Source: a virus
Length of the DNA stretch: 64,000 nt
Reading direction: 5' to 3' (one strand)
IMG/VR virus record: IMGVR_UViG_3300042503_000838
Location: 61,843-125,842 of that record
The notes under the pieces are model-generated. The model worked only from the letters and a program-made list of their open reading frames with translations, was not told the DNA's origin and searched no databases. Every line of letters begins with the position of its first letter. Within the stretch, counting starts at the first letter, position 1. Below are positions 48,931 to 49,148 of this stretch, one piece after another. The position numbers were made by a program, and so were the translations under genes.

Positions 48931-49132
48931 GAGGATGCCTGCAAGCCCGTGCGCCCGGTGTAAAGCCGTCCTCGTTATCAAGCTAGGCATGAGGGGTGTT
49001 ACTGATTCGTCGCGCTTGCCAAATGGGTCGAGGGCGCACCAGGGAATCAATCTGGCAAAGGTGATCAAACCTCCGGCCTGGAAATCCAGGACTTCGATGA
49101 TGGATCAGGTGTGCAAGCAGGGACCTGACCTC
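48931..49132 (-). ncRNA. candidate novel structured ncRNA (about 200 nt, multiple long-range stems/pseudoknots)
   Basis: 8-bp stems GGTCAGGT/ACCTGATC, TGCTTGCA/TGCAGGCA, GTGCGCCC/GGGCGCAC and TTGCCAGA/TTTGGCAA; own -10 box upstream. Confidence 0.55.
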
Positions 49133-49142
49133 TATCGATTTA

Positions 49143-49148
49143 ATTATA
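49143..49148 (-). promoter_or_regulatory. -10 box (TATAAT) for the ncRNA cluster
   Basis: Perfect TATAAT directly after a terminator and about 10 nt before the structured region. Confidence 0.6.

Follow-up and report, generated by a model that had tools for sequence, protein, structure and literature searches.

A predicted modular RNA of a lake cyanophage with a candidate variant of the abiF antitoxin motif ahead of two tRNA mimics

Introduction

The abiF motif (Rfam family RF03085), which also goes by the name AbiFr, or RCd22 in C. difficile, belongs to a type III toxin-antitoxin/abortive-infection system. In two experimental studies, the abiF RNA was shown to neutralise AbiF (Abi_2), a HEPN ribonuclease, by direct binding, and to do so in trans as well (10.1101/2025.04.15.648962; PMC12737573; PMC13064643). 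That AbiF is an RNA-controlled HEPN toxin was shown only in 2025, and the published neutralisation concerns RCd22 and the Prevotellaceae AbiF RNA only. AbiF is furthermore the proposed ancestor of the RNA-guided Cas13 (PMC12737573; PMC13064643). No description of a phage-borne copy of the AbiF antitoxin RNA was found in the literature searched.

Among phages, the stable RNAs C and D of T4 (rnaC and rnaD) are small non-coding RNAs of the tRNA cluster, where they are matured together with the tRNAs. That a phage can mimic an RNA of its host has been seen before in the Pectobacterium phage PhiTE, the pseudo-ToxI of which neutralises the ToxN of the host (PMC3475682). Regarding the formation of RNA ends, RNase P forms the 3' end of MALAT1-mascRNA at a tRNA-like element (PMC8457004).

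The present analysis deals with an RNA locus of a lake cyanophage. Based on sequence comparison, the predicted RNA is ~240 bases long (about 49136-48895, minus strand), is preceded by a putative promoter of its own and is made of three swappable modules, namely (i) a 5' hairpin called H5, (ii) a module B, and (iii) an abiF-type module. Taken jointly, this architecture and the assignment of the third module to the abiF motif are very probably correct.

Genomic setting and relatives

The record containing the window, i.e., the whole stretch of 64,000 nucleotides under analysis, is that of a virus of 125,842 bases, where the neighbouring genes are of phage type (a primase-helicase, an exonuclease, an HNH endonuclease, a Dps-like protein, and a virion protein) and Synechococcus phage S-EIVl, originating from an arctic lake, is its nearest relative in culture. 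The RNA locus lies on the minus strand and is flanked by a Lys-rich ORF of 56 amino acids (49425-49255) and by a gene for a protein of 210 amino acids (48716-48084). The former ORF (49255-49425, minus strand), which is Lys/Ala-rich, is kept in S-EIVl and in several IMG/VR relatives, and has no Pfam or PHROG family. For comparison, pattern scans of IMG/VR led to 145 viral loci, which were fetched and read for module layout. Of note, aptamers of the Glutamine-II riboswitch (RF01704) occur in related viral contigs, several of them beside tRNA genes. A relation to Y RNA and Ro60 was also considered and discarded, none of the 10 neighbouring proteins scanned against Pfam and PHROGs being Ro60/TROVE or RtcB. 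The features of the locus are collected in Table 1.

Table 1. Features of the RNA locus, in positions of the window unless another locus is given; functional designations are predictions.
Feature	Positions	Strand	Details
Intrinsic terminator of the upstream 56-aa Lys-rich ORF	49151..49179	-	Stem TCCTGG/CCAGGA, 9-nt loop, T6 run
-35-like hexamer	49166..49171	-	CTGAGC (TTGAGC in relatives), inside terminator loop, 17 nt upstream of -10
-10 hexamer	49143..49148	-	TATAAT; predicted transcription start near G49136
H5	49099..49136	-	GAUAGA; 8-bp stem GGUCAGGU/ACCUGAUC (49130-49123 with 49110-49103); minimal loop CCCUG-CUUG-CAC; CAUC
Module B	49003..49094	-	AAGUCC and hp1 49090-49077, hp2 49075-49056, hp3 49055-49039, hp4 49038-49034 with 49015-49011
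Module B pseudoknot	49049-49044 with 49008-49003	-	UGAUUC (hp3 loop) with GAAUCA; covariation
abiF-type module	48899..48996	-	Alignment to RF03085-type motifs
Outer stem of abiF-type module	48996-48991 with 48904-48899	-	CCCCUC/GAGGGG, then unpaired A48990
Inner stem of abiF-type module	48989-48987 with 48913-48911	-	UGC/GCA; loop CUAGC...UGAC; bulge CAAACA 48910-48905
M2, 64-nt insertion in abiF terminal loop	48918..48981	-	Three nested helices
M2 helices	48981-48974 with 48925-48918 (P_a); 48973-48969 with 48935-48931 (P_b); 48958-48947 (P_c)	-	P_a UUGAUAAC/GUUAUUAA; P_b GAGGA/UCCUC; P_c hairpin
Spacer between abiF outer stem and mimic 1	48895..48898	-	UCAC, 4 nt; predicted RNase P cleavage site (48895/48894)
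tRNA mimic 1	48823..48894	-	Acceptor, D and T arms intact; anticodon arm reduced to CCC-CGACAA-GGG
tRNA mimic 2	48746..48820	-	Conserved in L007, L008, L011, L045
RF01704 copies in related contigs	L117:6474-6526; L129:6436-6489; L072:6941-6997; L005:4002-4052; L013:414-467		

Overall architecture of the RNA

An earlier note on this DNA had described a dedicated, separately promoted non-coding RNA, devoid of any credible ORF and located directly ahead of two tRNA mimics, and in these respects the comparison with relatives supports it. The note had also depicted the RNA as a single multi-pseudoknot fold of ~200 nt, closed at its ends and finishing at 48931. The relatives point instead to independently folding modules, which are mixed and matched from one virus to another, and the RNA continues to about 48895. 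Covariation of the kind expected for a non-coding RNA is present among the IMG/VR relatives in all three modules and supports each of them; these relatives combine modules in differing orders and numbers, three being found in the window. As the minimum free energy is unexceptional with respect to shuffled sequences (z = -0.25), i.e., the fold is no stabler than a shuffled sequence, the case rests on comparative evidence.

Translation of one of the three overlapping ORFs had been raised as a possible objection to a non-coding RNA. None of them belongs to a Pfam family, a search against PHROGs gave one marginal match (E 0.099), and in this very region the relatives exhibit insertions and deletions that are not multiples of three, all of which speaks for the non-coding reading.

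As for the known classes of structured RNA, Rfam gave no match to tmRNA, GOLLD, ROOL, 6S, SRP, group I intron, manA, or wcaG in the window and 23 related loci, and ARAGORN reported no tmRNA in the window. The doubt already expressed about a resemblance to RNase P RNA was justified, since no Rfam match to it appeared at E up to 10 and the CGGCTT (CGGCUU) element lies inside M2, an optional insertion, and is absent from most relatives. Over 48895-49148, neither ARAGORN nor Rfam returned a match, the only call being a degenerate tRNA at 48822-48894.

Promoter, upstream terminator and expression

The two signals on which a separate promotion of the RNA had first been proposed are both present, namely a terminator composed of a hairpin at 49178-49158 (stem 49178-49173 with 49163-49158) and a T-run at 49157-49152, and the TATAAT hexamer at 49148-49143. 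The stem of the terminator covaries in relatives (TCTCGG/CCGAGA, TCCCGG/CCGGGA), with a fixed loop C(C/T)TGAGCAA, and TTGAGC (4/6 match) is found at a spacing of 16-17 nt in seven of the relatives listed, including L008, L026, L036, L044, and L131. The conserved loop of the terminator of the upstream gene doubles as the -35-like element of the putative promoter of the RNA. A -10 hexamer with a match of at least 5/6 ends 6-7 nt before GATAGAGG or GAUAGAGG in half of the distinct contexts (28/56); elsewhere, H5 is internal to longer chains or comes after a tRNA. From such signals, we infer the function of the promoter and the start site, and the ends of the transcript are likewise predicted.

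In RNA libraries from three studies, short contigs of 202-365 nt have a match of 90-99% to 48902-49098, past which they diverge into an extra module known from L007 and L054. No contig of these libraries extends over the flanking genes or over 49112-49179, which is uninformative either way. The short contigs are a weak hint, and no proof of transcription, that the RNA body of a close relative is abundant.

The 3' module as a variant of the abiF motif

The 3' module of the window can be assigned, from its alignment, as a variant of the RF03085 abiF motif. In an alignment of 37 sequences, comprising all loop classes, bacterial motifs and the window, the two abiF helices are 98.8% paired with compensatory changes at 7/9 pairs, where slid controls reach 43-57%. 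Taken separately, the outer helix of 6 bp has 98.2% of its cells paired and compensatory changes at all six pairs (n=37). It is followed by one unpaired A, invariant in the alignment, and by the inner helix of 3 bp, which is paired at 100% and the first pair of which is UA in 21 sequences, AU in 11, and GC in 5. The 3' bulge of 6 nt has the consensus CAAAUC (CAAACA in the window), its C and AAA being invariant in 37/37 rows. The terminal loop is where the window departs from the family: in place of the 11-nt loop CUCUCAACGAU, it exhibits CUAGC, an insertion of 64 nt and UGAC, i.e., a loop of 73 nt. Loops of phage copies fall into classes of 11, 23, 58, and 72-73 nt, the window being in the last one. 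The insertion, M2, is itself a conserved structure, 98.5% paired in an alignment of 11 sequences with compensatory changes at 8/26 pairs.

The link with the Rfam family passes through the relatives. RF03085, for which the gathering score is 37 bits, matches the homologous module, in its short form and directly ahead of tRNA mimic 1, in L026 (49.7 bits), L036 (49.7 bits), and L129 (54.5 bits); the range for canonical abiF copies of sister phages is 50-63 bits. A gapless alignment is obtained between six canonical copies from phages and nine abiF motifs from bacteria, which have a 20-nt core in common; an exact-match scan with this core recovered Bacteroidales, Acidobacteria, Clostridia, Aquiluna, and others among the matches listed. 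The window copy itself has no RF03085 match in Rfam, even at E up to 10. A covariance model built here from canonical motifs (R1) gives 22-32 bits to insertion variants up to 88 nt (loops of 23 and 58 nt) and no meaningful match on the window, whether the default filters were applied or switched off. The span of R1 is shorter than the long loop of the window, hence the lack of a model match, and the membership of the window rests on the alignment. Regarding the suggestion of the earlier note that the RNA might represent a new class, the 3' module most probably leaves that category as a variant of a known family, and H5 and module B have no match in Rfam; a match to a known class thus exists for one module in relatives, and neither in the window itself nor for the two other modules.

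Canonical abiF motifs of 37 nt were also observed at 51-63 bits in contigs of T4-like cyanophages (L130, L015, L018, L032, L048, L055, L058, and L063). In L130, the motif lies within a tRNA gene cluster and is followed, ~145 nt downstream, by an H5 hairpin and a tRNA mimic.

The toxin: bacterial loci, phage genomes and cyanobacterial plasmids

In bacteria, the motif precedes an Abi_2 ORF of ~300 amino acids by 26-32 nt in five of the six loci tested. No Abi_2 is encoded in the 125.8-kb record of the phage, and an HMM of bacterial AbiF proteins detected no AbiF-like ORF in 148 related phage loci plus the window (1.4 Mb). The phage abiF copies are consequently orphans and, in a phage without an AbiF gene, the abiF copy would most likely work in trans as a decoy. 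This is the reading we favour, i.e., the abiF module of the phage as an AbiF-antitoxin decoy directed against a host defence, and we consider it somewhat probable.

A target for such a decoy can be envisaged in cyanobacteria. Picosynechococcus PCC 7002 and PCC 73109, as well as Synechocystis PCC 6714, have plasmids that encode homologues of AbiF, with 190 bits for pAQ3, and the leaders of AbiF in PCC 7002 contain abiF-like motifs of 27.2 and 24.9 bits, under the Rfam threshold. In the cyanobacterial leader motifs, the terminal loop contains an additional small hairpin after CUA(G), which is the very site where the phage insertions follow CUAGC, so that loop insertions are compatible with genuine AbiF loci. 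These examples come from Picosynechococcus and Synechocystis, whereas the hosts of the phage group are Synechococcus/Cyanobium. The abiF-like leaders are found at L268:368-407 and 542-578 (two, pAQ3) and at L269:529-568 (one, pSYLA of PCC 6714); the motifs of pAQ3 stand beside a type I restriction subunit, and on pSYLA no annotated gene underlies the match of the AbiF-like ORF.

Other routes to a host counterpart gave nothing of the kind. In the scan of genome contigs with the 20-nt core (at least 119 stretches), no cyanobacteria appeared among the matches listed. BLAST of the canonical phage motif against plasmids yielded chance-level matches only, all contigs recovered by protein searches with the Dps-like gene, and with a gene of S-EIVl that bears the annotation sulfate adenylyltransferase, were short and of phage size, and the literature searched offered nothing usable on AbiF in picocyanobacteria.

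The distribution of the toxin and the nature of the insertions also bear on another explanation, where the RNA would recruit or reprogram a HEPN or other RNA-binding protein to the benefit of the phage, e.g., for the decay of host RNA, or would serve a protein of the phage. The proposed ancestry of Cas13 in AbiF (PMC12737573; PMC13064643) makes it conceivable, as do the large and variable loop insertions, which could carry extra functions. However, neither the record of the phage nor the related loci searched gave a HEPN or Abi_2 protein, and the insertions contain nothing resembling a guide or a spacer, so that we give this explanation very little credence.

tRNA mimics and the predicted 3' end

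Mimic 1 is called 'tRNA-???' by ARAGORN, and tRNA-Sec scores 19 bits on it. Its core GGACACCCCGACAAGGG is invariant in the tRNA clusters of two T4-like cyanophage isolates, S-PM2 (L002:1496-1568) and S-RIM8 (L003:1504-1577), the changes in the acceptor stem being compensatory. In the annotations listed, mimic 1 has no feature, and the locus-tag number 027 of S-RIM8 is skipped at that place.

The view that the mimics act as processing signals, put forward in the earlier note, is plausible. Of the 51 distinct copies from phages, 34 have a tRNA or tRNA-like element called by ARAGORN 4-12 nt past the 3' module, the distance being 4-5 nt for 28 of them, and in most of the other 17 copies a T arm is visible by eye. 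This fixed spacing of 4-5 nt supports a role of the mimics in processing and suggests that the 3' end would be formed by RNase P.

The same neighbourhood invites a more modest explanation, according to which the modules would only stabilise or fold the downstream tRNA mimics, tRNAs and mRNA, or time their maturation, as a leader or processing scaffold, the likeness to an antitoxin being functionless. Consistent with it, the module is almost always located directly before a tRNA or tRNA mimic, modules sit inside the tRNA gene clusters of T4-like cyanophages, and no terminator-like site was reported ahead of the next gene, i.e., between mimic 2 (48746) and the gene of 210 amino acids (48716). 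Yet a mere leader would have no reason to preserve the 20-nt abiF core exactly as it stands in Bacteroidales, Acidobacteria, and Clostridia, nor to keep bulge and unpaired A alike across four loop classes, and the downstream genes and tRNAs vary between relatives. On balance, we deem a pure scaffold unlikely and retain the AbiF-antitoxin decoy.

H5, module B and the assortment of modules

The 5' hairpin GGTCAGGT/ACCTGATC described at 49130-49103 is indeed present and its stem covaries in relatives, at positions 3, 6, and 8 over 51 distinct copies. The stretch between the conserved CNCUG and CAC of H5 can hold extra hairpins, of at least seven classes, whereas the copy of the window has the minimal loop. 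Module B is similarly well defined: its alignment (n=12) has 97% of its cells paired and compensatory changes at 10/26 pairs, where slid controls give 31-52%. The local CCTGG-ATTT-CCAGG hairpin (hp1, 49090-49077) is paired at 100% in relatives, and the pairing of TGATTC with GAATCA (49049-49044 with 49008-49003) has compensatory changes at four of its six pairs.

This pairing makes one pseudoknot genuine, in module B, and the multi-pseudoknot topology does not survive, four of the five long-range pairings formerly proposed having to be rejected. For TGCTTGCA/TGCAGGCA, the loop sequence is found in RNAs without the partner, which in turn stays invariant where the loop is a different one. As regards GTGCGCCC/GGGCGCAC, only 3 nt are complementary in L011, which possesses both parts; in both of these proposals, the partners assort independently among relatives and each strand pairs locally with covariation. 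The crossing TTGCCAGA/TTTGGCAA is paired at 66%, i.e., at the level of shuffles, and in the end closure GAGG/CCTC, the CCTC belongs to a local covarying helix, GAGGA/TCCTC. A further candidate, ATGCCT/AGGCAT, was dismissed for want of covariation, being broken in half of the sequences.

Several side modules deserve mention. An anticodon-arm-like hairpin, G(Y)TAGGCA(C/G)A(T/C)AGCCTAGAAGG, recurs at two sites, as if one sub-module were reused, i.e., as an insert in the loops of H5 (L008, L011, L025, L026, L045, and L081) and, downstream, as the 'anticodon arm' of a second family of tRNA mimics (L005, L006, L010, and L012). Two more hairpin modules occur in relatives, one with a conserved loop UGCUCUGUCGG on a covarying stem and the other based on GGACYGGAAAUUUCCRGUC, neither of which is in Rfam. 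The extra hairpin modules were seen in L008, L011, L016, L026, L036, L073, L081, and L129.

This modularity bears on a wider version of mimicry, where H5, module B, the abiF module and the tRNA mimics would each imitate a different host RNA, i.e., antitoxins or the tRNA substrates of anticodon nucleases. Independent assortment and the many module combinations, as in an arms race, are in keeping with such a multi-target array of decoys, and so are the identity of one module as a known antitoxin RNA and the anticodon-arm-like hairpin common to the loops of H5 and the second family of tRNA mimics. However, H5 and module B match no Rfam family and no plasmid sequence, BLAST against plasmids giving chance-level matches only, and no host counterpart beside a toxin gene was found; such an array thus appears decidedly unlikely. 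The AbiF-antitoxin decoy, for its part, covers one of the three modules only. H5 and module B could be further decoys, scaffolds or processing elements.

Proposed mechanism

Under the favoured decoy model, the RNA polymerase of the host would start at the sigma-70-type promoter overlapping the upstream terminator, and the transcript would comprise H5, module B, the abiF-type module, the two tRNA mimics and the next gene. A cut by RNase P at mimic 1, 4 nt past the abiF outer stem, would then release an RNA of ~242 nt with a defined 3' end. Acting in trans, the phage abiF copy would keep the host AbiF inhibited at the time when infection would otherwise free the toxin; with inhibitor RNA supplied early in infection, the toxin of the host would stay blocked. 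In this sequence of events, the processing by RNase P, the binding of AbiF and the anti-defence role are what we infer.

A bolder elaboration can be formulated, to which we attach a rather low probability. The arrangement of an abiF motif, 4-5 nt and a tRNA or mimic might constitute a bipartite inhibitor, in which the motif would dock on the AbiF HEPN dimer, and the tethered mimic, with a non-cleavable anticodon arm, would fill the active site that normally receives tRNA of the host. In that case, H5 and module B would lure other, as yet undescribed RNA-controlled toxins of picocyanobacteria, and the whole would amount to a compact, recombining library of anti-defence RNAs delivered at the start of infection.

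Significance

Toxin-less abiF RNAs are found in two unrelated cyanophage lineages, the S-EIVl-like and the T4-like phages, often with elaborate loop insertions, and a tRNA or tRNA mimic is joined to the phage copies in nearly every case. The occurrence of such orphans, mostly tRNA-fused, in two lineages suggests that AbiF-type abortive infection may be of importance to picocyanobacteria, a group with little-known intracellular defences. The case brings together the orphan abiF RNA and the modular cyanophage RNA, adding loop-insertion variants and a cyanobacterial counterpart, and may offer a first way into the function of the numerous modular RNAs, still unnamed, that are located beside cyanophage tRNA genes. 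H5 and module B are defined well enough for the building of models and the search for partners. Besides, the loop-insertion variants mark where the abiF fold tolerates extra RNA, which could be useful for the engineering of AbiF/Cas13-like ribonucleoproteins.

Comparison with known systems

Like rnaC and rnaD of T4, the RNA of the window is a small non-coding RNA encoded beside phage tRNA genes. The cyanophage RNAs differ in being modular, with one module of known identity, and have no evident relation to them in sequence or structure. As in MALAT1-mascRNA, a tRNA mimic placed right after a structured non-coding RNA would set the 3' end by means of RNase P; whereas MALAT1-mascRNA is eukaryotic and nuclear, the cleavage in the cyanophage is only predicted, from the spacing of 4-5 nt.

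With pseudo-ToxI of PhiTE, the window copy would have in common the status of a phage-borne, toxin-less type III antitoxin RNA opposed to an abortive-infection toxin of the host. Unlike the window copy, which would face a HEPN toxin, pseudo-ToxI addresses the ToxN family and is made of tandem repeats of 36 nt processed by the toxin. Its function was demonstrated at the bench (PMC3475682), whereas that of the cyanophage decoy is a proposal.

The nearest system is RF03085 itself. The window copy has the same outer stem of 6 bp, the unpaired A, the inner stem of 3 bp N-G-C/G-C-N and the 6-nt 3' bulge CAAAYN, and it keeps the 5' (CU..C) and 3' (GAU/GAC) ends of the loop. Unlike in canonical members of the family, its loop carries a three-helix insertion of 64 nt, which places it below detection by Rfam, and no abiF gene lies downstream; instead, the window copy stands 4 nt upstream of a tRNA mimic, within what would be a longer modular transcript with a promoter of its own.
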